NCBI GenBank assembly: GCA_964590205.1
Contig: CAZPVO010000003.1
Span: forward strand, 682 to 64,681
DNA from: an uncultured Candidatus Saccharibacteria bacterium
Lineage (GTDB): Bacteria > Patescibacteriota > Saccharimonadia > Saccharimonadales > JAGQNJ01
Length of the DNA: 64,000 nucleotides
Direction: 5' to 3'
Shown: positions 3,548 through 58,591 of the stretch, in pieces
Numbering within the stretch: the stretch's first letter is position 1
Layout of the letters: each line of letters opens with the position of its first letter
Made by a program: the position numbers and the translations under genes
The notes under the pieces: model-generated
The model's database searches: none
The model's input: only the letters and a program-made list of their open reading frames with translations
Told to the model about the DNA's origin: nothing

Positions 3548-3566
3548 TGAGGCGGCTTCGCCTTTT

Positions 3567-3620
3567 GAGAGGGGATATCCCCTCTCAACGCGCAGAGCAA
3601 AAAGTGTGATTTTTGCTCTG
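3567..3620 (+). terminator. two tandem hairpins downstream of CDS 2444..3547
   Basis: GAGAGGGGATATCCCCTCTC palindrome at 3567-3586. An 11-bp stem CAGAGCAAAAA/TTTTTGCTCTG lies at 3593-3620. Confidence 0.5.
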
Positions 3621-3630
3621 GCTCTCTCCC

Positions 3631-3658
3631 CTGAAATTCTTCAATCATCTGGTACAAT
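3631..3658 (+). promoter_or_regulatory. extended -10 promoter of gltX (leaderless geometry)
   Basis: TGgTACAAT at 3650-3658, 6 nt before the ATG at 3665, with a weak -35 CTGAAA. Confidence 0.4.
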
Positions 3659-3664
3659 ACAGAG

Positions 3665-5095
3665 ATGAAAGTAAGAACTAGGTTTGCTGTTAGTCCAACT
3701 GGTTATATGCACGTTGGCGGTGTGCGTAATGCACTATTTGATTGGCTCGTTGCCAAACAGACTGACGGGCAGTTTATATTGCGCATCGAGGATACTGATC
3801 AAGCCAGGGAAGTAAAAGGTGCTCTCGAGCATATCATTGAAACACTACATATTCTTGGTATTACATGGGACGAAGGTCCGGATGTTGGCGGGCCAGCTAA
3901 AACTTACGTGCAAAGCCAGCGACTAGATATTTATAAAGAATGGGCTCAGAAGCTCGTTGATGCCGGCAAGGCTTACGCTGATCCATACACGTCCGAGCAA
4001 GTACAACAATTCCGAGAACAAGCTCAAAAAGATAAAAAGCCCTTTTTGTATCGCGATCATCGGCCAGAGAACCCTCCCAAATGGGACGGTACGCAACCAT
4101 TACGCCTCAAGTCAGAACCCAAAGCTCATAAATGGCACGACGAAGTTATGGGTGATTTGTCTGCTGGCGAGGAAGCTGTTGACGATTTTGTGCTCATAAA
4201 ATCTGATGGTTATCCAACGTATAATTTTTGCCACATTATTGATGATCATCTCATGGATGTAACTCATGTGATTCGATCACAAGAATTTTTGGCCAGTATG
4301 CCAAAGTATCTTAATCTTTATGAGTCACTCGATATTTCTAAACCAAAATTTGCCACTCTACCGTGGATTATGGCTGAAGGGGGCAAAAAGAAACTCAGTA
4401 AACGTGACGGCGCTAAAGATGTTTTAGACTACATCCGTGAAGGTTATTTGCCCGAAGCATTGGTTAGTTTTATCGCCACACTCGGCTGGAATGATGGTAC
4501 AGAACAAGAAGTTTTTACTGTTGATGAGCTCATTAAAAAATTCAGTTTGGAACGAGTGGGCAAAAGCGGCGCGCACTTTGACGAGCAACGCTTAACATGG
4601 GTCAACGGTCACTTTATTCGACAACTCAAACTCGATGAACTCTATACAAAAGTAAAAGACTTTTGGCCAGCAGAAGCCGAGGGTTCAGACGAAGATTATA
4701 AAAAACAGGTTTTGGCACTTGTACAAGAACGGCTCAAATATTTTACTGAGCTGCCCGAGCTCACCAAATTTTTCTTTGAAGAGCCCAGCCCTGACATAGA
4801 GCTAATTGACAATAGCAAGCAACTCAAAAAATTCTCGCATGATGAGTTGGCAAAACTGTTGCGCACAGCAATTGATAGTTTAGAAACCAGTAATTTTAGC
4901 ACCGAAGACCTTACCAAAAAGCTCAATGATTTATTAGAAACCACCGAGCAAAAGCCTGGCGTGCTGTTTAGCTTAATCCGCGTGGCAACAACATGGTCAC
5001 CAGCATCGCCAGCTCTTGCAGAAAGCCTACATGTACTCGGCAAAGACAAATCGCTGAACAGGCTCAAAGCCTCTCAACAATACATTGGTAAATAA
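3665..5095 (+). CDS. gltX: glutamyl-tRNA synthetase
   Basis: Class I motifs PTGYMHVGGVRNALF (HIGH-type) and KLSKRDG (KMSKS-type). Similar to GluRS over the full length. Confidence 0.93.
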   Translation: MKVRTRFAVSPTGYMHVGGVRNALFDWLVAKQTDGQFILRIEDTDQAREVKGALEHIIETLHILGITWDEGPDVGGPAKTYVQSQRLDIYKEWAQKLVDAGKAYADPYTSEQVQQFREQAQKDKKPFLYRDHRPENPPKWDGTQPLRLKSEPKAHKWHDEVMGDLSAGEEAVDDFVLIKSDGYPTYNFCHIIDDHLMDVTHVIRSQEFLASMPKYLNLYESLDISKPKFATLPWIMAEGGKKKLSKRDGAKDVLDYIREGYLPEALVSFIATLGWNDGTEQEVFTVDELIKKFSLERVGKSGAHFDEQRLTWVNGHFIRQLKLDELYTKVKDFWPAEAEGSDEDYKKQVLALVQERLKYFTELPELTKFFFEEPSPDIELIDNSKQLKKFSHDELAKLLRTAIDSLETSNFSTEDLTKKLNDLLETTEQKPGVLFSLIRVATTWSPASPALAESLHVLGKDKSLNRLKASQQYIGK

Positions 5096-20186: not shown

Positions 20187-20876
20187 TTATGCTGCTAAAT
20201 CATAACCCGTATGAATAGAATCGATCATGAAATCCATACAAAATAGAATTCTATTTTCGGCGCCTGCGCCACAGTGACGAGTTTGAGGTAGTCCAACTTG
20301 CTCCCCATTACATAACGCAATAGCTTGACGCACAAACAGTACGTCGCCAGGTCCGTAACTAGTAAGAAATTCAGGCATGATGCTTGCTTCACCTGTAAGT
20401 GTCTTTTCAGACAAAACAAATTTTTGATTTTTGTCATCTGTTGGTGAAGCTGCGAAGAGCGCCTCTCCACCGCAAGTAGGCACAATAACTGTAATGCCGC
20501 GTCGTGCCACCTCATCAAGATGTCCTTTGACTTCTTCTTCTGGCTCAAGATAAATACTATTAAATTTGAGTGCGATACGCGCAGCCTCGTTTTCAGGCGT
20601 AAAGAGTAGGTCCTTTACAACATGAAGTTCTGGAGCCCATGTCATCGCATCTGCTTCCGCATGATGAGGTAGGGTTCCATTATTAGCCTTATTAGTAGTG
20701 AGACTCAGCACACCAGTTTTTTTCAATTCGTGAGCTGGTCGCACATTTTTATAAAGCCGCTTTGCCGACATTTCTGAGACAAAACTGCTTACTTTTGCTA
20801 CGCCATCATTAATACAAGCCTCTAGTACTTCAGGACTAGGTTCAGCGAAAGTTTGAACAGACTTTACGTAATTCAT
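20187..20876 (-). CDS. hypothetical protein (weak HxD...H hint of a non-haem Fe oxygenase fold)
   Basis: Clean 229-aa ORF. The only hints are GHLDE and a distal TRHCG. The function call is speculative. Confidence 0.35.
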   Translation of the reverse strand: MNYVKSVQTFAEPSPEVLEACINDGVAKVSSFVSEMSAKRLYKNVRPAHELKKTGVLSLTTNKANNGTLPHHAEADAMTWAPELHVVKDLLFTPENEAARIALKFNSIYLEPEEEVKGHLDEVARRGITVIVPTCGGEALFAASPTDDKNQKFVLSEKTLTGEASIMPEFLTSYGPGDVLFVRQAIALCNGEQVGLPQTRHCGAGAENRILFCMDFMIDSIHTGYDLAA

Positions 20877-20894
20877 CGGCTCATTTTACTCTTA

Positions 20895-20917
20895 AAACAA
20901 AATAGACTTCCAGAGGG
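20895..20917 (+). repeat. direct repeat copy 1 (AAACAAAATAGACTTCCAGAGGG)
   Basis: Perfect 23-nt match to 20977-20999. Confidence 0.9.
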
Positions 20918-20976
20918 CGGAAAGGTCCAGTGGAGCTTTCCGTAGACACGAGCGAAGTGTCGCTCAAAAAGTCTCT

Positions 20977-20999
20977 AAACAAAATAGACTTCCAGAGGG
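20977..20999 (+). repeat. direct repeat copy 2 (AAACAAAATAGACTTCCAGAGGG)
   Basis: Perfect 23-nt match to 20895-20917. Its core pairs with 21011-21026. Confidence 0.9.
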
Positions 21000-21396
21000 G
21001 GTGGGCACCACTGGAAGTCTATTTTGGGGACGTCCACCTGGGACCTCCCGAAAATACACCCTTCAACCCACCACGAGCGAAGCATCAGAATCAAACTCCA
21101 CGTAAAGATCTGTGCCGAACAGTTGTTCATACTGGCGTACTCGCTGTTGAAAACCGGGTAGTTAAAGGGGTTAGTTTGTTTTAGAGCCTCGTTTGCACGG
21201 AGACTCAAAGTGGAGGGTAACAACTTTAAAGTCTATAACTCTAAAACAACCTAACGTTTTCACCACATGGGTGAAAGTTAGAATGGGGGATAAAGGTACG
21301 TAAGAAACCGCTTAAGCGGACTTACGAGTTGCAATTTTAGCAAAACAATGTCCTTATGTCAATACTAAAAAACATTTTTGTGATATATTAAAAAAG

Positions 21397-22251
21397 ATGA
21401 CAAAAAAGCATAAGCTAAAAGGGCTCGAAATCCCTGATTGTCTCCAAACAATTCCTTCGCCACCGAAGGAGTTGTTTATTTATGGAGAGTTGGCACCTCT
21501 GTTAGAAAAACCTCGTTTGGCAGTGGTTGGCAGTCGTAAAGTAACACCTTACGGTAAAGCAGTAACAGGGCAACTCACCAGGGAAGCAGCCGAAGCCGGA
21601 ATTGTCATTATAAGTGGGCTAGCCCTTGGTGTGGACAGTATTGCACATCAAGCCACATTATCTGCCAGTGGGCTCACCGTAGCCGTGCTGCCTTCGTCAA
21701 TTGAAAACATAGCGCCTAGAGCCCATATACCGCTTGCTCAGCGGATTTTAGAGCAAAATGGCGCTCTCGTAAGTGAATACCCTCAGGGCAGCGAGCCGAA
21801 CCGTGGAAACTTTATTAATCGTAATCGTATCGTGGCAGGCTTGAGCGATGCGGTACTCATCACCGAAGCCGCCGCCAACAGTGGCACCATGCACACCGCA
21901 AACTTTGCGCTTGAGCAAGGCAAACCAGTTCTTGTTGTACCAGGTAACATAACCAGCCCACAGAGCGCTGGCACCAATAATCTGCTTAAATCTGGCGCAA
22001 TACCAGTTACTGACGTCGAAGATATCTTTAGTGTGCTGGGCATTAATAAGAATAAAACAAGCCTCGTCATTAACGCTGCCAACGAGCAGGAATTTATTAT
22101 TCTTAGTCTGATTCAAGAGGGAACGAGCGATGGCCACGAGCTGCTGGCCAAGAGTGAACTCGACGCCGCCGTGTTTAATCAGACGCTCACCATGCTTGAA
22201 ATAACAGGGAAGATCAAAGCCCTCGGCAGCAACCACTGGGCAAAATTGTGA
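21397..22251 (+). CDS. dprA: DNA processing protein DprA (Smf)
   Basis: VVGSRKVTPYGKAVTGQLTREAAEAGIVIISGLALGVDSIAHQATL Rossmann-like DprA core. The dprA-topA adjacency is classic. Confidence 0.9.
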   Translation: MTKKHKLKGLEIPDCLQTIPSPPKELFIYGELAPLLEKPRLAVVGSRKVTPYGKAVTGQLTREAAEAGIVIISGLALGVDSIAHQATLSASGLTVAVLPSSIENIAPRAHIPLAQRILEQNGALVSEYPQGSEPNRGNFINRNRIVAGLSDAVLITEAAANSGTMHTANFALEQGKPVLVVPGNITSPQSAGTNNLLKSGAIPVTDVEDIFSVLGINKNKTSLVINAANEQEFIILSLIQEGTSDGHELLAKSELDAAVFNQTLTMLEITGKIKALGSNHWAKL

Positions 22252-43357: not shown

Positions 43358-44059
43358 CTAGTCAAAATTAAAGCCGAGCCCACCTAACGAACTTTTTACA
43401 ACTATAAGATCCACATTTGTCATTGTTGTTCCAATATCCTGCTCTTCATCGAAAAGTTCTCCAAGGTCATCAAGCTCATCGTCCGATGTTTCACCATCAG
43501 GCTGTTCATCGCTAGGTAGCTGAAGTGCTCCCTCAATGTCGCTGTCCCAAAATACACGACCGTCATCTAGCTGAAGCTCCATCTCGACTTTTGTATCCCC
43601 TGGATCATCATCATCAGTCGTGAACCAGTACGTTTCACGTTGCCATGCCGACATACCATCACGTCGCTCTTCAGTGAGTACAAAATCGGGGTCATAATGC
43701 GTTAAAGCCTTTTCCGCTCTAGCAAGCAGTTCATATGTTTGTGCAAACCTTTTGGTAAGCACTGCGATAGCCGCTAAACATAACCGCTCTCGAGGATTAA
43801 CAATTACGTCATCGCCATTATTGACTTCAGCCAGAATACAATGTGCCTGAAATTCAATTCGGAAAACTCCAAAAACTGGATCCTCAGGATCAATAACAGT
43901 TTTGGCGCACATTATGTCAGATCCCGGAAGAGCCAGGCCAACAAAGTCACCGCCAAATTGCTGGTTGACAGCTGGCCAAATAATTTCATCACGAAAATCT
44001 ATAACTTCTTGACTGGATAAGGCACGCTCACTTCCGACAGTCGGGTCGTTCACACTCAT
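43358..44059 (-). CDS. hypothetical highly acidic protein
   Basis: 233-aa ORF with an Asp/Glu-rich C-terminal half (DDDDPGD, SDEQPDGETSDDELDDLGELFDEEQD). No signal peptide and no motif. Confidence 0.45.
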   Translation of the reverse strand: MSVNDPTVGSERALSSQEVIDFRDEIIWPAVNQQFGGDFVGLALPGSDIMCAKTVIDPEDPVFGVFRIEFQAHCILAEVNNGDDVIVNPRERLCLAAIAVLTKRFAQTYELLARAEKALTHYDPDFVLTEERRDGMSAWQRETYWFTTDDDDPGDTKVEMELQLDDGRVFWDSDIEGALQLPSDEQPDGETSDDELDDLGELFDEEQDIGTTMTNVDLIVVKSSLGGLGFNFD

Positions 44060-44106
44060 GAATTAAGATTGACAGATTGTGTGCATTATTGCAAGAGATA
44101 GCCAAC

Positions 44107-44960
44107 TTAGTTTTTGATCATGACAGCAGAGATAAGCACCAGTATCGAGGCAGCGATCTTGCGCCACACATGGGATCGTTCTTTGAGCAAGAAGTAACTG
44201 AGCACAACTGTCACGACAACTTGCGCAGTTAGTAGCATGGCAACCCGCGCTGGTTCTGGAGCGTGCTTGTAGGCATAGTACGCAAACAAGAATTTAGGAC
44301 GCTTGGAATAGCTGTAAGTAACGGGATCTTAATAATCACCGCTTTGTCGGTCACTTTTTTAAGGTCACCGACGACTTGACGGAATTTTACAATCAACACA
44401 GTAAGTGCTGCCCCACCATAAGCTGTTACTAAATAAGTTGCGGCAGTAACTTGTTTTGACAGTTCGCCACTGGACAACTGAAAGATGGCAAATATAAACG
44501 CGGCGACAATCATGAGCATAACCCCTCGCCGATGTAATTCAATCTTACCTGTCGTCACGCTGATGATCGCGAGTAACAATAAGATGATGCCAACAAAATT
44601 TATGAAGCTGAGGTGCAAATTTAGAAAAGTCATAGCCAGCACCGTGTTAAAAACAAGAACAGAAGAAAACGCAATCTGAGCCGTTGAATTTGTTAAGTCT
44701 TTTAGAGCGGCAAAGTAGAAAATATTTCCCAAGCCTTGGCTAACAACAACCAATAATACGGTTGTCACGTCCACATTGCCTGTAAAGTGAATTCCTCCTA
44801 AGAATGGTGCAGCTAAAAGTGATATAAACATACCTGCAAGCGGCAGCAAAAAACCTTTGGTATACGCCGAGACGTCCAATTTGTTCGAAAGAACTTTGGT
44901 CATAATGCCATAAATTGCCCGAGCAACAACGGCAATAGCAGTAAAAAATAACCAGTTCAT
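44107..44960 (-). pseudogene. EamA/DMT family transporter, interrupted by a frameshift
   Basis: ORF 44229..44960 carries the N-terminal DMT repeats. ORF 44107..44289, in another frame, carries a typical DMT C-terminus (FAYYAYKHAPEPARVAMLLTAQVVVTVVLSYFLLKE). The frames meet at CCTAAATTC near 44290-44298. Confidence 0.6.
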
Positions 44961-44979
44961 TTATCGTAATTGTACCAGA

Positions 44980-45666
44980 TTACTGCTCGTGTGAAATTTG
45001 CCTGGCAAGCCAATTCATATGCACAATGTTGTTGTTCAAGAAATTTATTGCGCCGCGGTGTCCGCTTAGCCAAAGCGTTTCTACAGCAAGATTAGTTCCA
45101 TTTTGATCCCATTGCCTAAATCGGTTCATAGCCTCACGATAATGTATAAGGTGATCAAGTGCGCCTAAAACGACTACAAAATCAGATTCGGGTGAAGCGT
45201 GAAGTGGTCCCCAGTACTCGCGAAGACTGGTTTCATCCCAACCGTTGCGACTATAAGCTCTCCGAACCGGCAAAAATATAGGGTTGTGAGCAATAACTCG
45301 TGCAGTATCAACTCCCCCAGCTGCGAACAAACCCGGCAAAGCATTGTCATGATCAGCTCTCTGCAAATTTAAACCAATAGCAAACCCCCAGCTACCACCA
45401 ACATAGCGCTTGTACGAATAACCTTCAGCCCGCTCAGCAAAATGGGCACCAATATCATCCATTAGTTGAGGCACAAATTCTGCATGCCCAGCAGTCAAAA
45501 CGGCGTCATCATATTCATACGCAACCACATCATATTCACCTTGCACTAAGGTTTCAATCGCGGGATCGCATTGCTCAATTTTGCCACCAAGTCCGGAAAT
45601 AACTGCAGCAATCTTATCATTACCAGGAGTCATCACTTCTTTAGATCTAAATTCTACATCAGCCAT
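44980..45666 (-). CDS. alpha/beta hydrolase fold-like protein
   Basis: GGSWGF nucleophile-elbow-like motif (GxSxG) with downstream Asp and His candidates (GALDHLIHY). Start taken at MADVEF. Confidence 0.4.
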   Translation of the reverse strand: MADVEFRSKEVMTPGNDKIAAVISGLGGKIEQCDPAIETLVQGEYDVVAYEYDDAVLTAGHAEFVPQLMDDIGAHFAERAEGYSYKRYVGGSWGFAIGLNLQRADHDNALPGLFAAGGVDTARVIAHNPIFLPVRRAYSRNGWDETSLREYWGPLHASPESDFVVVLGALDHLIHYREAMNRFRQWDQNGTNLAVETLWLSGHRGAINFLNNNIVHMNWLARQISHEQ

Positions 45667-46081
45667 ATTTATTCCAGCGATGGCCATGACGCTCGGCATC
45701 ATAGCGCGAACGTGCTAGCCGCAAAGCCTGGCTCACACCAAGCCTCAGTCCGTTCAAAATTATAAGTTTCGGCTGTCGATTCAGACTTTCCCGATCCAGC
45801 CCTTCTGTAATTCCCCTATCGCCCATTGTCAAGGCCTTGTATTCATCCGAGCAGGCACCTTTAAGCGATTCACGCCATTCGGTTAAATAATCAACGACTG
45901 CGTCAGGTGTGGCTACTTTTCCCTCCGGAAATGCCACAAATTGATCCGCAACTAAAGCACTTACTGTTGCGATGGCATCCCGATGAGAAATCGGATTATC
46001 AAAAAATGCTGGATTGAGCACCCCGGGATATGCTTCTAGCTGACTCTGTAATCTTTCGGTTGCTTCAACATAATCAGCCAT
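45659..46081 (-). CDS. hypothetical protein
   Basis: ORF with protein-like composition. Start taken at MADYVEA (ATG at 46081). Its stop overlaps the next gene's start by 8 nt. Confidence 0.4.
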   Translation of the reverse strand: MADYVEATERLQSQLEAYPGVLNPAFFDNPISHRDAIATVSALVADQFVAFPEGKVATPDAVVDYLTEWRESLKGACSDEYKALTMGDRGITEGLDRESLNRQPKLIILNGLRLGVSQALRLARSRYDAERHGHRWNKYG

Positions 46082-46129
46082 GGTAGCAAATTTTACTAGT
46101 GCTGGCTGTAATTGCAAGCTTAAGCTTTT

Positions 46130-46267
46130 TCATTCTTCGTGGTGTTTGTGATGTTCGACGATTTTGTGTTCTTCGTCCTTTGCTTTCTCATATAACTTCA
46201 CAATTCCAACACCAATCAGTGCAATCAGCAAAGTCCCCAGAAATGATAATAAAACTAATGGTCCCAT
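46130..46267 (-). CDS. possible 45-aa single-TM small protein
   Basis: ATG..TGA ORF below the track threshold: MGPLVLLSFLGTLLIALIGVGIVKLYEKAKDEEHKIVEHHKHHEE. It has a hydrophobic helix and a charged, His-rich tail. Confidence 0.35.
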   Translation of the reverse strand: MGPLVLLSFLGTLLIALIGVGIVKLYEKAKDEEHKIVEHHKHHEE

Positions 46268-46296
46268 AGCTTAATTGTACCAGCTCTTTTGTATAC

Positions 46297-46483
46297 TTGC
46301 TTTTTTACCGTTATGGTTATAGAATAATTCCCATGCATTTATTTGCAAACAATACTACTTTTCAAAACACTCGCCGCGCTCGTATATAGGAGTGGCGTGT
46401 TTTGCTATTGTTTGTAAATTTTAAATCTTAAAAAGAAGCCCCCGCGCCCACTCCAAGACTTACAACGGGCTTCTTTTAATTTT
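46297..46483 (+). promoter_or_regulatory. promoter plus structured leader or small RNA upstream of the GNAT gene
   Basis: TTGCTT (46297-46302), 17-nt spacer, TAGAAT (46320-46325). A 14-bp + 8-bp extended hairpin spans 46341-46419. A 9-bp stem AAGAAGCCC/GGGCTTCTT (46433-46475) is followed by TTAATTTT. Confidence 0.5.
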
Positions 46484-46495
46484 AGGAGATTTAAG

Positions 46496-46999
46496 ATGTT
46501 TTACTATGAAATTTTAGATACGAACAATCCAATGTCGGTCGGTGAATATTGTCTCATAACTGCCAATGGCACAGCCGTTCCCTATTGGTTCACACAACAA
46601 AGTCTAGAGGGCGGCGTTAAGCCATTTACACCCCTGGATGTAGCTGGCCATGTAATTGGAGCTGCGGCTATATCACATGAGACAAATTGGCAGCGTGGCA
46701 ATCACGTTCAGTCAGAAGTTTATGGCTACGCTGGCATCGTCGATACCTATGAGTTCGAAGGTGAAAGCTATGACCAAATTGGCAGCTTTTTAGTCGACAA
46801 GAACCAACGTGGACTTGGTGTTGGAGCAGAAGTGCTTAAAACATTGATCGATGCATTGCCAGGTAAAAATCTTTCAGCAATGGTAAAAGAAAGTAATACC
46901 GCATGCGCTCATCTGTTCGAAAAATTTGGTTTTAAGGACAAAAGTGCACCAAGCATAAACAAATACGGCAAAACGCTCTATGTCAAAAAAGCCGCATAG
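46496..46999 (+). CDS. GNAT family N-acetyltransferase
   Basis: Motif A in FLVDKNQRGLGVGAEVLKTLIDAL, with AGGAG 7 nt upstream of the ATG. Confidence 0.8.
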   Translation: MFYYEILDTNNPMSVGEYCLITANGTAVPYWFTQQSLEGGVKPFTPLDVAGHVIGAAAISHETNWQRGNHVQSEVYGYAGIVDTYEFEGESYDQIGSFLVDKNQRGLGVGAEVLKTLIDALPGKNLSAMVKESNTACAHLFEKFGFKDKSAPSINKYGKTLYVKKAA

Positions 47000-47005
47000 A
47001 ACTAT

Positions 47006-47027
47006 GGGCGGCCGGTGGCAGCCGCCC
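47006..47027. terminator. GC-rich hairpin between convergent genes
   Basis: GGGCGGC-CGGTGGCA-GCCGCCC, a 7-bp GC stem between the stops at 46999 (+) and 47048 (-). There is no clear U-tract. Confidence 0.4.
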
Positions 47028-47047
47028 TCAGAGCTTTAGCCACACTT

Positions 47048-48037
47048 TTACCAGTGAGGTCCGGTTTGATGTGTACGGCCACGGTGTCGAACAGGCTTTT
47101 GGCCTTGGATTTTCTTCCACCCGTTCTTGTCTCGATGGCGATCTTTTGTTTTGTTACGAAGTTGAGGATTTGTTGGACCATTATCGATGATCGCTTTTTC
47201 TTCGTCTGGAATAAATCCAATGTTATTAATGCTGGTAATTTTAGTTTTATTAACTTTTTTACTAACAGGCACATTTTTAACTTCAGACTTTTGAACCTTT
47301 TCTTCAACAGTCTTGGTGTCATTTTCATCACCCTTTTCCGTAATCCCAATATGTGCGCCACGTCGTTTATCCAACACTTGGTCTAAAAAGATTCTTACTG
47401 CATAAGGTGATAATTCATGGTCAAGGTTATATTCATCCTCCATCTCTCTTCGGTCCTTATAATGAAATTGCTCAACAAGTTCGTCAGCACGCTTTATTTC
47501 TACGTCTGACTTCCACTCATCTTCAACGCCCTTAGTCGTGGTTTTATCTTTGATATCAACACCGTGCTCTGCAAAGTCTTCTTCGACTGCGGTTTCTGCT
47601 AATTCTGCTCGCTCATCAGCTAAGTGTTGGTTAGGTACACTTGAAGTTTGTTCGCCATTTGCATTTTCATCTTCAGCAGAAGCCATTCCTGTAACATCAA
47701 CTTTGGTTACTTTATCCCAGCCTGTGTCTCCAAGTTCTTTCTTGAGCTGTTCATCAACTTGCTCTTTGGATGCTTGAGCATCGTCCGCATCAGTTTCAAA
47801 ACCTCGTTGGTACTTGTTATGGACTTTTGCAGGTAGTTCAACGGTGAAATGTCGTGGATCGGCTGGTAATTCTTTAGTAATTGTATCTGTATGTACTTCT
47901 ACTACAGGGACAGTCATGGCTTCAGTATGCTGTTCATGTGCGACACTTGGCAACAGACTTCCAACAACTGCAACAGCAGCAACTTTAGCGAGAGCTTTGT
48001 GATTATGTTGTTCTGGTTGTGGTACTTCTGCTGACAT
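47048..48037 (-). CDS. hypothetical exported/anchored protein with basic C-terminus
   Basis: The N-terminal hydrophobic segment KVAAVAVVGSLLPSVA is followed by an acidic middle region and a Lys/Arg-rich tail. No motif recognised. Confidence 0.45.
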   Translation of the reverse strand: MSAEVPQPEQHNHKALAKVAAVAVVGSLLPSVAHEQHTEAMTVPVVEVHTDTITKELPADPRHFTVELPAKVHNKYQRGFETDADDAQASKEQVDEQLKKELGDTGWDKVTKVDVTGMASAEDENANGEQTSSVPNQHLADERAELAETAVEEDFAEHGVDIKDKTTTKGVEDEWKSDVEIKRADELVEQFHYKDRREMEDEYNLDHELSPYAVRIFLDQVLDKRRGAHIGITEKGDENDTKTVEEKVQKSEVKNVPVSKKVNKTKITSINNIGFIPDEEKAIIDNGPTNPQLRNKTKDRHRDKNGWKKIQGQKPVRHRGRTHQTGPHW

Positions 48038-48101
48038 GATTTTTGTTTTATGTTGTAATGATATTAGTATACCATAAGAGTTATGGATTTACAACTTTAT
48101 T

Positions 48102-48524
48102 TTATTGTTGCTTTGCCCAGTAGGCTTCGATAAGCTTATTGTCGGCTAAATCTTTGAACCGAGCAGTATCAGCTTTCCAATCATACAGTTCTTTGAGTGG
48201 CATAAACGGGATTCCCTCAACCACCTCAGGACTTTCAATATAATCTTTGATCTTAGGAATCCAGCGGTCATTTTTGTTATAAGTTGTGAACGCTTCGCAC
48301 TCAAACTTGCTAAATTTTTTATACAGATACGGCATAAAGTTATCGAGTTTTATTTCTTCCCACCCCTGCTTTTTAAGTTCCCCGTAAAGCTTTTGAGTGA
48401 CATATAAATCAATATCATATGTTGGGCGAATATTACGAATTGCCAATGACGAACCGCCGAACAAACAGTACTGTCCTTTTGGCAAATCAAGCTGCTCAAC
48501 AAGCTCAATAATCTCGTCTTTCAT
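48102..48524 (-). CDS. minimal nucleotidyltransferase-fold protein (ANT/Lnu-like)
   Basis: LFGGSSLAIRNIRPTYDIDLYV fits the G[GS]-x(9-13)-DxD pattern of the pol-beta NTase superfamily. Confidence 0.5.
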   Translation of the reverse strand: MKDEIIELVEQLDLPKGQYCLFGGSSLAIRNIRPTYDIDLYVTQKLYGELKKQGWEEIKLDNFMPYLYKKFSKFECEAFTTYNKNDRWIPKIKDYIESPEVVEGIPFMPLKELYDWKADTARFKDLADNKLIEAYWAKQQ

Positions 48525-48533
48525 TCTAACCGT

Positions 48534-49115
48534 TCACTTCTTAGAATGTTTAACTATCTTTTGGCGTAGATAAATTTCTAAGCCTATCGATATAGCTGAA
48601 AACAAATAGTATAGCGGAAACGCAAAATTATTAAATTTGTGACTACTTATGCCAGCGATGGCAAGGGTTGCGCCGAAAGCAAAAAGAGCAAATGGGTGCC
48701 AAGATTCCTCAAAAGGCTCAATCCACGCGTGGTAATATGTCGGTATTGCAGCAAAGAGATCTGCGATAATAGCAAACGCGATGGCCCATGTTGGGTTACT
48801 ACTCACGAGCCACAGCACCAATCCAATAATTGATATTGCCTGACAGGTTGCATCCAACCATCCATATCCCCTATCCCCATTTCGAAGTGCAAAAATCACA
48901 ATTAATATATCAATGGTCGACGCTGTTCCAGTTAATACTGCTGCCGTGTATGCATGCGCACTTATTTCAGCAACTGTAGCAATAATTCCAAGTAATCCCC
49001 AAGTAGACCATGTGGCTAGTCGAGGCTTAACTCGCTTCTTAATGGTATCAATAAGATACGGGGTAAACGACAGTGCGACAATTAGCGATCCAACGACAGT
49101 TAATAGTTCGCTCAT
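48534..49115 (-). CDS. multi-pass membrane protein (paralog of 42750..43346)
   Basis: Six TM helices, with the same length class and N-terminal pattern as 42750..43346. Confidence 0.5.
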   Translation of the reverse strand: MSELLTVVGSLIVALSFTPYLIDTIKKRVKPRLATWSTWGLLGIIATVAEISAHAYTAAVLTGTASTIDILIVIFALRNGDRGYGWLDATCQAISIIGLVLWLVSSNPTWAIAFAIIADLFAAIPTYYHAWIEPFEESWHPFALFAFGATLAIAGISSHKFNNFAFPLYYLFSAISIGLEIYLRQKIVKHSKK

Positions 49116-49121
49116 ATTGCC

Positions 49122-49499
49122 TTAGTCACTAAAATAGTTATCTTCTGGGCGGTTGTAATGAGTAAGCTTAAACATTTCTTTCATTTCTTCAGGGGTGTTG
49201 AGTCGAATAATTTTAAACTTGCCTGATGTTACCCCATTTTCATAATCATGATGAATTTCAGTTATGTAAACCAAGCCCCAGTACAACCATTTACCAGCAA
49301 GATCTTCAGACAAAAAGTTTCGCACTGGAGGGACTTTGTAAACTCGAATTCCCTTCTTCGATTTAAACTCAAAAATTTTGTCTTTAACGTCATCGAGTGA
49401 AAAGGGTTTCGCTAGGTGCTTTGTTATATCTAATTCCAATGGGAATCCCTGCTCTTTTGAGATTCTGAGCGTATCGTTAACTTCGATGAATGATCCCAC
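49122..49499 (-). CDS. hypothetical cytoplasmic protein
   Basis: 125-aa ORF tightly packed against glyQS. No motif recognised. Confidence 0.45.
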   Translation of the reverse strand: MGSFIEVNDTLRISKEQGFPLELDITKHLAKPFSLDDVKDKIFEFKSKKGIRVYKVPPVRNFLSEDLAGKWLYWGLVYITEIHHDYENGVTSGKFKIIRLNTPEEMKEMFKLTHYNRPEDNYFSD

Positions 49500-49501
49500 T
49501 G

Positions 49502-50851
49502 CTAGCTAACCTTTTTTACTAAATCTTCAATCTTGATGCGGTCTTGTTTGGTGGTGTCGCGGTCTCGGAGCGTGACGGTGCCATCTTCGAGAGTATCGAA
49601 GTCGATGGTTACGCAATACGGCGTACCGATTTCGTCCTGGCGACGATAACGCTTACCGATGTTACCGTTGTCATCCCACATAACATTGCCGAGTTCTTTT
49701 TTGAGAGTTCTGTAGACTTCTTCGGCTTTTTTAACTAGCTCTGGTTTGTTCTTGAGCAGTGGCGATACTGCTACCCGATACGGCGCCAAGTGCGATGCAA
49801 GCTTGAGGACCACGCGTGTTTCGCTGTTCACTTCTTCCTCATGATAGGCATTCACCAAAACAGCCATGAGCATACGTCCAACTCCGACTGAACTTTCGAT
49901 AACATACGGAACAAACCGTTCACCTGTTGATTCGTCAAAATAGCTGAGATCTTTTTTGCTGACACGCTGATGGTTGGAAAGATCGTAATCGGTTCGGTTG
50001 TGTGTTCCCCACAGCTCTTTAAAACCTTGCGGAAAGTTAAAGTAAATATCATGCGCCGCCGCTGCATAGTGAGCTCGTTCTTTTTCGTCGTGCTCGTGCC
50101 ACTGCAGGTTTTTCTCATCAATGCCTAGTCGCTTAGTTAGGAAATTCCAGGCAAACTCACGCCATGTTTCATACACTTCTTTTTGATCGGTATCACGAAT
50201 AAAATACTGCATCTCCATCTGTTCCAGCTCGCGAACTCGAAAGATAAAATCACGAGGGCTAATTTCGTTTCGGAAGGCTTTTCCTACTTGGGCAACGCCA
50301 AAAGGCAGTTTGGCGCGCATGGTTTCACGAACGTTTTCGTAGTTGGTAAAAATCGAACCTGCCGTTTCTGGTCGTAAATACGCCACACTTGAATCATCTT
50401 CGATTGGGCCAACCCACGTTTTCATCATCATGTTGTAAGTTCGCGGTTCAGTCAGGGCTTTTTTGCCACAGGTTGGACAAGCTTTATCTTTGAGTAGTTC
50501 CGTGAGTTCTTTTAGATCGGTCGAATCGGTGCCAGCTAAATGATCGGCTCGGTGCCGCGCCCCACAGTTTTTACAGTCAACAAGTGGATCGGTAAAACCG
50601 GCTACGTGACCACTGGCTTCCCAGAGCTTCGGATTTTGAATAATAGCCCCGTCGACTCCAAAAATGTTGTCGTGCTCGTGCACCATTGCGTCCCACCACT
50701 CTTTTTTCAGATTGTTTACCAGCTCCACACCAAGTGGGCCATAGTCGTAAAAGCCAGCCAAGCCACCATAAATTTCACTAGCCTGAAATACAAAACCGCG
50801 GCGTTTGGCAAGACTTACAATATCGTCTAAACTAACTTTTTTGTCGCTCAT
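49502..50851 (-). CDS. glyQS: glycyl-tRNA synthetase (dimeric GlyQS type)
   Basis: FVFQASEIYGGLAGFYDYGPLGVEL, class II motifs and an anticodon-binding C-terminus. Start taken at MSDKKVSLDDIV (50851), because the upstream part of the ORF looks non-coding. Confidence 0.92.
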   Translation of the reverse strand: MSDKKVSLDDIVSLAKRRGFVFQASEIYGGLAGFYDYGPLGVELVNNLKKEWWDAMVHEHDNIFGVDGAIIQNPKLWEASGHVAGFTDPLVDCKNCGARHRADHLAGTDSTDLKELTELLKDKACPTCGKKALTEPRTYNMMMKTWVGPIEDDSSVAYLRPETAGSIFTNYENVRETMRAKLPFGVAQVGKAFRNEISPRDFIFRVRELEQMEMQYFIRDTDQKEVYETWREFAWNFLTKRLGIDEKNLQWHEHDEKERAHYAAAAHDIYFNFPQGFKELWGTHNRTDYDLSNHQRVSKKDLSYFDESTGERFVPYVIESSVGVGRMLMAVLVNAYHEEEVNSETRVVLKLASHLAPYRVAVSPLLKNKPELVKKAEEVYRTLKKELGNVMWDDNGNIGKRYRRQDEIGTPYCVTIDFDTLEDGTVTLRDRDTTKQDRIKIEDLVKKVS

Positions 50852-50973
50852 CTTACGCATAAGTATAACAGATCTGAGGCGAATATAATGAGCCTGGTAA
50901 ATTGCAAAGCAATTTAGGTGACACGCAGTGGCACTAGCTGGTTCGACCTTGCAACGCAAGGTCATAACAGATG

Positions 50974-58561: not shown

Positions 58562-58591
58562 AAAAGCCCCCTATCAGGGGCTTTTCTTTTT
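58562..58591. terminator. bidirectional intrinsic terminator
   Basis: AAAAGCCCC-CTATCA-GGGGCTTTT stem-loop followed by TCTTTTT. The A-tract on the other side serves the convergent gene. Confidence 0.7.

Follow-up and report, generated by a model that had tools for sequence, protein, structure and literature searches.

A probable arginine-responsive leader-peptide attenuator ahead of an orphan-like GNAT gene in Saccharibacteria

Introduction

Classical transcription attenuators precede aminoacyl-tRNA synthetase (aaRS) genes, such as pheST in gamma-proteobacteria and trpS and leuS in Streptomyces, and arginine-related genes in Firmicutes use T-boxes (PMC1262725). In mycobacteria, leaderless short open reading frames (ORFs) serve as amino-acid-sensing attenuators via ribosome stalling (bioRxiv 10.1101/834739). 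Here, we describe the leader of a GNAT acetyltransferase gene on a 64,000-nt stretch of DNA from an uncultured Candidatus Saccharibacteria bacterium (contig CAZPVO010000003.1, positions 682 to 64,681; the whole stretch is referred to below as the window). Judging from its sequence and from those of four relatives, this leader probably controls transcription by ribosome-mediated (leader-peptide) attenuation of the trp/his/pheST type and responds to the supply of charged tRNA-Arg. Saccharibacteria, which belong to the candidate phyla radiation, are generally regarded as incapable of synthesising their own amino acids. A literature search revealed no described argS leader-peptide attenuator, and no regulatory RNA or attenuator in Saccharibacteria.

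With the classical attenuators (E. coli trpL, hisL, thrL and pheL; pheST, trpS and leuS), the GNAT leader shares a leader ORF with codons for the amino acid to be sensed, mutually exclusive helices between regions 1 and 2, 2 and 3, and 3 and 4 (hereafter 1:2, 2:3 and 3:4), and a U-tailed terminator just before the regulated gene; as in the aaRS attenuators, the cognate synthetase gene, argS, lies in the regulated operon of related loci. It differs from them in that arginine would be sensed, with only three Arg codons in an apparently leaderless ORF, in that an orphan-like GNAT always comes first among the regulated genes, and in that the antiterminator of the window copy encloses the 5' strand of the terminator and does not share it. 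The mycobacterial polycysteine short ORFs (the 'Cys ribulon'; bioRxiv 10.1101/834739) resemble the GNAT leader in that the transcript would start at the AUG of an unannotated, amino-acid-sensing short ORF, and in the window there is also a 12-bp helix over the Shine-Dalgarno (SD) sequence and AUG. Those attenuators unmask a ribosome-binding site (RBS) and thus act on translation, whereas the GNAT leader has a canonical U-tailed terminator; a stalled ribosome would not overlap the strand that pairs with the GNAT RBS (the anti-RBS strand), and another amino acid and another phylum are involved. T-box leaders (of Firmicutes aaRS genes, including Arg-specific ones) likewise exert terminator/antiterminator control of aaRS genes in response to tRNA charging. 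They bind uncharged tRNA directly and have no leader ORF, whereas the GNAT leader is without specifier-loop or T-box sequence features, and permissive Rfam searches (46100-46650 of the window at E <= 10, the four related leaders at E <= 1) found no T-box match.

The mechanism considered here is thus textbook and already known; what is seen here in Saccharibacteria is an arginine leader that is not in Rfam. Only a tRNA passes the Rfam gathering threshold in the window. The best leader match at 46100-46650, Thr_leader, scored 16 bits against a threshold of 55, which is noise level, and nothing was found in the four related leaders at E <= 1. An earlier note on this DNA, made from its letters alone, had recognised no known riboswitch class in the leader and had suggested an Rfam scan.

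Results

The leader and its relatives

The leader lies in a divergent intergenic region, between a 45-codon membrane-peptide ORF on the reverse strand and the GNAT gene on the forward strand; its parts are collected in Table 1. The promoter, the AGGAG of the GNAT gene, both hairpins and the complementarity between them were read from the sequence where the earlier note had placed them. That note missed the leader ORF, which spans the entire 5' arm and apical loop of hairpin 1 and whose stop codon abuts the G-rich strand 46389-97. The ORF is predicted to be translated and is probably leaderless.

Table 1. Features of the GNAT leader in the window (MFE, minimum free energy fold)
Feature	Position	Strand	Remarks
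Promoter	-35 TTGCTT 46297-46302, 17-nt spacer, -10 TAGAAT 46320-46325	+	read from sequence
Leader ORF (putative coding sequence)	46333-46389	+	18 codons plus UAG (46387-89), MHLFANNTTFQNTRRARI; ATG 7 nt after -10
Hairpin 1, outer helix	46341-54 (ATTTGCAAACAATA) with 46406-19 (TATTGTTTGTAAAT)	+	14 bp including one G-U; 5' arm within leader ORF
Hairpin 1, inner helix	46363-70 (CAAAACAC) with 46397-404 (GTGTTTTG)	+	8 bp
Region 1	46363-46380	+	5' strand of inner and apical helices of hairpin 1; pairs with region 2 (MFE)
Regulatory codons CGC CGC GCU CGU (Arg-Arg-Ala-Arg)	46372-46383	+	inside region 1
Region 2, GGAGUGGCGUG	46389-46399	+	pairs with region 1 or region 3
18-nt insertion	46407-46424	+	gap in all four relatives, columns 83-100 of alignment A4
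Anti-RBS strand, AUUUUAAAUCUU	46418-46429	+	pairs with 46486-46497: part of SD and first two AUG bases
Terminator 5' ('distal') strand, AAAAGAAGCCC	46431-46441	+	relatives: shorter AAAGCC at same place
Region 3, CGCGCCCACUCC	46443-46454	+	in 25-nt terminator loop; pairs with region 2 as antiterminator
Region 4	46467-46483	+	terminator 3' strand GGGCUUCUUUU (46467-77), then U-rich tail UUAAUUUU
SD of GNAT, AGGAG	46484-46488	+	among the few strong SDs of window genes
GNAT acetyltransferase gene	46496-46999, ATG 46496	+	167 aa; Pfam Acetyltransf_1, E = 3.3e-10

Relatives of the GNAT protein were sought by an exhaustive HMMER search, which yielded a handful of GNATs at about 30% identity, and then by a profile search. 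Four relatives (P0002, P0003, P0007 and P0010; 27-31% identity) are encoded on metagenome contigs (loci L090-L093), in each of which a DUF1361 gene is followed by a spacer of 146-170 nt and the GNAT gene. An ArgRS (arginyl-tRNA synthetase) gene comes after GNAT in L093, L092 and L090; the L091 contig ends before that point. A DNA-alkylation-repair gene beside the relatives is 44% identical to genes in Saccharimonadales loci, and the contigs probably also come from Saccharibacteria.

The four spacers contain the same parts as the window leader in the same order, at 51-62% identity, with the shared aligned blocks AAACAATACTAC, ACTCGCCGC and CGTAT and the tail TTTTAATTT. Their leader ORFs, of 24-25 codons, read MKMINNTTAMTRRIRMTGAVLVVF, MNMMQNTQAIVRRVRTIGAVLVVY, MTTQCIALAMTTRRLRINGDALVIS and MIYGFITERYEFRRSIINGATLVVN. 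The other parts are, in order, a G-rich stretch (CGGGGCGGUG and variants), AAAGCC with a C-rich stretch after it (CACCAGCCCCG and variants), CGGGGCUUUUUAAUU, and the SD and start of the GNAT gene; the terminators are GC stems of 7-8 bp with the conserved tail UUUUUAAUU. In these relatives the G-rich region 2 can pair either upstream with region 1, which carries the Arg codons, or downstream with the C-rich region 3, and GCCCC(G/A) belongs both to region 3 and to the 5' strand of the 3:4 helix, a canonical terminator. The Arg-Arg pair is kept in all five leaders and the third Arg in four of the five (RRAR, RRIR, RRVR, RRLR and RRSI), and all differences among the Arg codons fall on the wobble position (CGC CGC, CGA CGU, CGU CGC).

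The window leader was aligned with the four spacers (alignment A4, five sequences). For the 2:3 helix, 96% of cells were paired and six of ten pairs had changes on both sides (G-C to A-U, C-G to U-A, G-C to C-G, U-A to C-G), while helices slid out of register as controls were paired in 34-52%. The covariation score was 0.52, compared with 0.23 in shuffles, and none of 500 shuffles reached it. All five leaders have this helix in one layout, with 5-6 bp, a one-nt bulge and 4 bp, and RNAalifold, given the alignment alone, returned the 2:3 helix as the consensus. The helices of the terminator state (1:2 plus 3:4) were paired in 89%, with three compensatory pairs, and the core of the 1:2 pairing (columns 47-52 with 68-73) in 87% across the five leaders. 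This comparison of regions upstream of related GNAT genes, together with covariation, had been proposed in the earlier note, and it decided the interpretation. The note's suggestion of a cis-regulatory attenuator with a terminator in the GNAT mRNA leader is upheld. It had also offered the complementarity of the two hairpins as a possible pseudoknot or alternative fold; the alternative fold is the conserved and covarying antiterminator.

A covariance model built from the four relatives, with the window leader left out, gave a single match in the 64 kb on both strands, at 46337-46498 (+), colinear over model positions 1-140, with 21 bits and E of about 0.13 (rough calibration). A model of the whole family (R2) added no further members to these five sequences. 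Neither the leader nor a GNAT accompanies the argS genes of other Saccharibacteria (L011, L066), and P0011 is an unrelated RimI beside TsaB. Two pattern scans of viral contigs gave no match. A metagenome scan for GGAGTGGCGTG-N35-60-CGCGCCCACTCC gave six matches, and the three that were inspected were high-GC coding sequence with other spacing.

Alternative folds of the window leader

The forward strand of 46332-46495 has a folding energy of -46.2 kcal/mol (z = -4.85), which none of 200 shuffles equalled, and the reverse strand has z = -1.98. By GC-adjusted folding energy, the leader ranks 19th among 3869 segments of 165 nt across the 64 kb. The outer and inner helices of hairpin 1 are parted by an internal loop of 8 nt x 1 nt. 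The second hairpin has a 9-bp stem, AAGAAGCCC/GGGCTTCTT (46433-41 with 46467-75), which extends to 11 bp (46431-41 with 46467-77), and a 25-nt loop, and is followed by TTAATTTT. Such a loop is atypical compared with other terminators in the window: ordinary ones have loops of 4-6 nt, as does the clean bidirectional terminator AAAAGCCCCCTATCAGGGGCTTTT at 58562-58585, after a short ORF that ends at about 58541.

The GGAGTGGCG strand (46389-97) of hairpin 1 is complementary to CGCC(C)ACTCC (46445-54) in this loop, and RNAduplex extends the pairing to 11 bp with one bulge. The energy of the duplex of regions 2 and 3, -19.7 kcal/mol, was reached by 0.7% of shuffles of the upstream strand and 7.9% of shuffles of the loop. 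When region 1 was masked and region 4 was not yet transcribed, the MFE structure was the antiterminator (-19.6 kcal/mol), which encloses the terminator 5' strand and in which GCU (46404-6) pairs with AGC (46437-9). When folds were masked for a ribosome at the stop codon, or for no ribosome, the terminator formed.

The MFE fold also contains the 12-bp anti-RBS helix, with two G-U pairs, beneath the terminator-like stem; it was missed in the earlier note. The paired probability at the GNAT RBS is 0.74, ranking 8th of 70 genes, and the significance of the helix is modest because it is AU-rich. An ermC-type translational switch was dropped, as the SD helix persists in every footprint-masked nested fold. 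In all five leaders, RNAalifold pairs the U tail with the GNAT SD region (columns 150-156 with 161-167; 46472-78 with 46483-89 in the window). This pairing, weak because it is AU/GU-rich, could add a translational layer in read-through transcripts.

From the conserved parts, their covariation and the thermodynamic feasibility of the folds we infer the following course of events. Transcription would start at about A46333, and the mRNA would begin with the AUG of the 18-codon leader ORF, leaderless 5' ends presumably being routinely used for translation initiation in the host. With no ribosome on the leader, region 1 would pair with region 2 in the long hairpin 1, and a ribosome that moves unhindered to the UAG would cover region 2. 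In both cases the terminator with its U tail would form and most transcripts would end at about 46478-83; in those that read through, the SD and AUG would still be partly paired with the anti-RBS strand. When Arg-tRNA is scarce, a ribosome would stall on the Arg codons and cover region 1, leaving region 2 free to pair with region 3 once the latter is transcribed. Since this antiterminator encloses and partly pairs the terminator 5' strand, the terminator could not form quickly, and RNA polymerase would then read through into GNAT. Because the operon runs into argS in three of the four relatives, the circuit would raise both ArgRS and GNAT at low charged tRNA-Arg.

The window copy departs from its relatives in several respects. 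Its leader ORF stops just before region 2, while theirs stop after it; even so, region 2 would be covered by a ribosome terminating at the window stop codon, and the stop codon of the E. coli trp leader has the corresponding position. The 3' arm of the outer helix (46406-19) and some of the anti-RBS strand come from the 18-nt insertion, to which the window owes its 14-bp outer helix and stronger 1:2 hairpin. GGGGC in region 2 has become GGAGU and GCCCC in region 3 has become ACUCC, matched changes by which the pairing was kept after divergence. The same changes did away with the proximal terminator stem that the relatives have (GCCCCG with CGGGGC). The window terminator uses a lengthened version of the upstream AAAGCC element as a relocated strand, and region 3 is left in the loop.

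Promoter and leaderless gene starts

The earlier note had called the promoter good. Its position stands, and its match to the σ70 consensus is 8 of 12 positions (3 of 6 in the -35 element); a generic σ70 scan did not list it. The site conforms to the promoter grammar of the window itself (TTGnnn, TAnnnT, short spacing to ATG). When RBS accessibility was compared for about 70 window genes, most starts had no SD, and in about one third the start lacked an SD and a -10 hexamer (TAnnnT) ended 6-7 nt before the ATG. This hexamer is often TGnTACAAT or TATACT, often with TTGnnn 16-18 nt upstream. About 20-25 gene starts in the window are of this leaderless type, for example those at 3665(+), 16054(-), 16120(+), 38460(+), 44960(-) and 53491(-).

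The spacing from -10 to ATG peaks at 6-7 nt for ORFs of at least 100 codons and is flat for short ORFs. Where 5.1 +/- 2.2 would be expected, the window has 12 occurrences of the full signature TTGnnn-N16-18-TAnnnT-N6-7-ATG, nine of which head long ORFs; since the signature is enriched at real gene starts, leaderless mRNAs appear to be common among window genes. The leader ATG at 46333 carries this signature in full. The strong SD of GNAT is what one would expect if the gene lies away from the 5' end of its transcript. Leaderless mRNAs thus look like a default initiation mode here, on which a literature search found no papers for Saccharibacteria.

Elsewhere in the window, three tandem hairpins stand after a gene end (3548-3664; z = -5.5). 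Beyond them lie TGGTACAAT and, after 6 nt, the ATG of a class I aaRS-like gene (MKVRTRFAVSPTGYMHVGG), so that a cluster of terminators and a leaderless promoter are probable here.

The GNAT gene and its setting

The best PDB matches of the GNAT protein are phosphinothricin- and MddA-type amino-acid-analogue acetyltransferases (E of about 1e-5), and over PDB and NCBIfam together the best matches are PAT-, MddA- or RimI-like GNATs of a generic kind. That its substrate is an arginine analogue or Arg-tRNA is speculation. An AlphaFold model from a four-sequence alignment, with a mean pLDDT (predicted local distance difference test) of 40.9, was too poor for use. A word-indexed search of 5.8 billion protein clusters found no close relative other than GNAT itself, and no relatives were found in species-representative genomes or in viral contigs; identical copies of the gene occur in two Logan contigs only. 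The gene across the intergenic region (45659-46081, reverse strand; 140-aa product) is likewise an orphan with no close relative in the 5.8 billion clusters.

On the reverse strand at 49502-50965 the window encodes a GlyRS (glycyl-tRNA synthetase) with 63-88% identity to GlyRS of Saccharibacteria metagenome-assembled genomes. Among 80 Patescibacteria loci anchored on GlyRS there was no GNAT and no synteny, and the intergenic region was unmatched by blastn or nhmmer. A covariance model of the single window leader had no match over 1.42 Mb of these loci. The leader sequence is present once in the window, so that a repeat or mobile element was dropped as an explanation. The segment of about 43358-49499, which has no synteny in 80 related loci, contains genes without a recognisable family, among them an ORF at 48102-48524 with a faint AbiEii-like match (E = 0.037), and looks like a strain-specific variable region.

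The 45-codon ORF (46130-46267, reverse strand) would specify a single-pass membrane peptide with a His/Glu-rich tail (MGPLVLLSFLGTLLIALIGVGIVKLYEKAKDEEHKIVEHHKHHEE). Its start (46130-46282 region) shows the leaderless signature, TGGTACAAT, 6 nt and ATG, and its promoter stands back to back with that of the attenuator. The sole family match of the peptide is weak (PepG1-like, E = 0.018). A type I toxin-antitoxin system with this gene was dropped, since the PepG1 match is its only support and reflects hydrophobic composition, and the GNAT as a toxin of a toxin-antitoxin pair or part of a defence system was dropped too, PADLOC giving no significant match and the best protein matches being generic.

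On the reverse strand, the 46428-46483 hairpin is followed by UUUUUAAG; it folds at -21.2 kcal/mol there compared with -14.3 kcal/mol on the forward strand, with G-U pairs structuring the loop. Transcription of an antisense RNA over the GNAT RBS could start from a weak promoter-like site (CCGACA-16-TAAAAT, 46538-46511), for which the relatives offer no support. At some distance, no other part of the window has a GC-adjusted folding energy as extreme as that of the gene-free, strongly structured region 20877-21480 (520-600 nt). A 28-nt direct repeat (20890-20917, 20972-20999) lies within this region, as do a 13-bp bidirectional hairpin (20983-21023) and a hairpin resembling a terminator (21447-76). 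The region is a candidate unannotated non-coding RNA; at 20800-21450, Rfam had nothing at E <= 1 and ARAGORN detected no transfer-messenger RNA.

Discussion

Several observations weigh against an attenuator that reads charged tRNA-Arg. The regulatory run of three Arg codons is short, and an 18-codon ORF in AT-rich DNA is not significant on its own. In L091 and L092 no more than 4 nt separate the -10 box from the first ATG, a spacing which makes leaderless initiation uncertain there. The family consists of five sequences from about four lineages, L091 and L092 being 82% identical, and the shuffle control may overstate significance among related sequences. A sequence-only nhmmer profile of the four relatives misses the window leader at E <= 10, and its structure-aware match is marginal; homology is drawn from that match, the order of the parts, the ORF motif and the homologous downstream gene together.

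Region 3 of the window shares no nucleotides with the MFE terminator stem. Exclusion there relies on enclosure and three to four extra pairs, strict exclusivity is inferred, and a pseudoknot in the window copy is sterically conceivable. With region 1 masked, the equilibrium slightly favours the terminator (-20.8 versus -19.6 kcal/mol); the two states are nearly isoenergetic and therefore the switch would have to be kinetic. The switch of the trp leader is likewise kinetic. No argS follows the window GNAT, and the physiological logic is less clear there.

The last point, together with an ORF cut to 18 codons by a stop codon, a lost proximal stem, no ArgRS gene anywhere in the 64 kb and a GNAT that is, like its neighbours, an orphan in a variable region, would suit a decaying relic of a real attenuator that no longer regulates. 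We consider this unlikely. Region 2 changes are matched in region 3, hairpin 1 has grown by 14 bp and the terminator has acquired a new, stronger stem of 11 bp, which are gains and not losses, the promoter, ATG, Arg codons, U tail and SD are all intact, and the early stop has the trp leader geometry. The same RNA switch, with identical parts, could instead be worked by a nascent-peptide sensor, in which the Arg-Arg-x-Arg peptide arrests the ribosome on free arginine or a related molecule; such a sensor would be comparable to TnaC, SpeFL or the arginine attenuator peptide of fungi, and would need no codon starvation. The motif is indeed kept at the peptide level in five diverged leaders, but the remainder of the peptide is poorly conserved, and its C-terminal part varies freely where RNA pairing is kept (GAV, GDA, GAT, a stop in the window). 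Moreover, with argS downstream, induction at low charging makes a sensible feedback and induction at high arginine does not. We give such a sensor a rather small probability.

The readings put forward in the earlier note, a riboswitch-like leader or an independent small RNA, fare worse. That the leader is structured, ends in a terminator and matches no known family could be said of a metabolite-binding riboswitch with an aptamer for a ligand related to the GNAT substrate. What is conserved, however, is an ORF with its Arg codons and three mutually exclusive helices, without ligand-pocket anatomy: there is no conserved multi-helix junction and there are no invariant unpaired nucleotides, and the largest window helix comes from an insertion that the relatives lack. 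We regard a riboswitch as very improbable. An independent small RNA of about 150 nt acting in trans, with the unpaired C-rich loop as an anti-SD seed, would account for a promoter and terminator of its own, and rnTrpL is an example of a terminated attenuator leader that can act in trans (PMC7968998). The element, however, always stands directly before a GNAT homologue on the same strand, and the covarying partner of the C-rich loop is region 2 of its own transcript; nothing specifically supports independence. The terminated leader might conceivably have a role in trans. In a variant of this idea, an antisense RNA from the reverse strand would end at the same hairpin, which is the more stable there and is followed by UUUUU, and a weak ctRNA_pT181 match (22.9 bits against a threshold of 56, E = 1.4) points the same way. 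Yet G-U pairs and the fold z-scores favour the forward strand, and a reverse-strand terminator would have no role in the relatives because their upstream gene also lies on the forward strand of the element. Small RNAs of either kind are very unlikely.

The attenuator reading charged tRNA-Arg is thus the explanation we favour. Beyond the single leader, it is possible, and we put it forward tentatively, that the five sequences represent an uncatalogued attenuator family of Saccharibacteria, in which a leaderless leader peptide monitors Arg-tRNA charging and which travels with an orphan-like GNAT rather than with argS, and that the window copy is an attenuator being rewired, with a new terminator strand, an 18-nt insertion building a 14-bp clamp, and an enclosing antiterminator. 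The alignment of the five sequences and their structure could seed an Rfam-type family. Leaderless default initiation would bear on gene calling and on the search for other small ORFs. If the attenuator is real, there would be a charging-sensing circuit for ArgRS and an acetyltransferase, and a family travelling with GNAT would imply that the enzyme acts on arginine, an arginine antimetabolite or Arg-tRNA; GNAT expression tied to Arg-tRNA supply would offer a handle on the function of an orphan GNAT.

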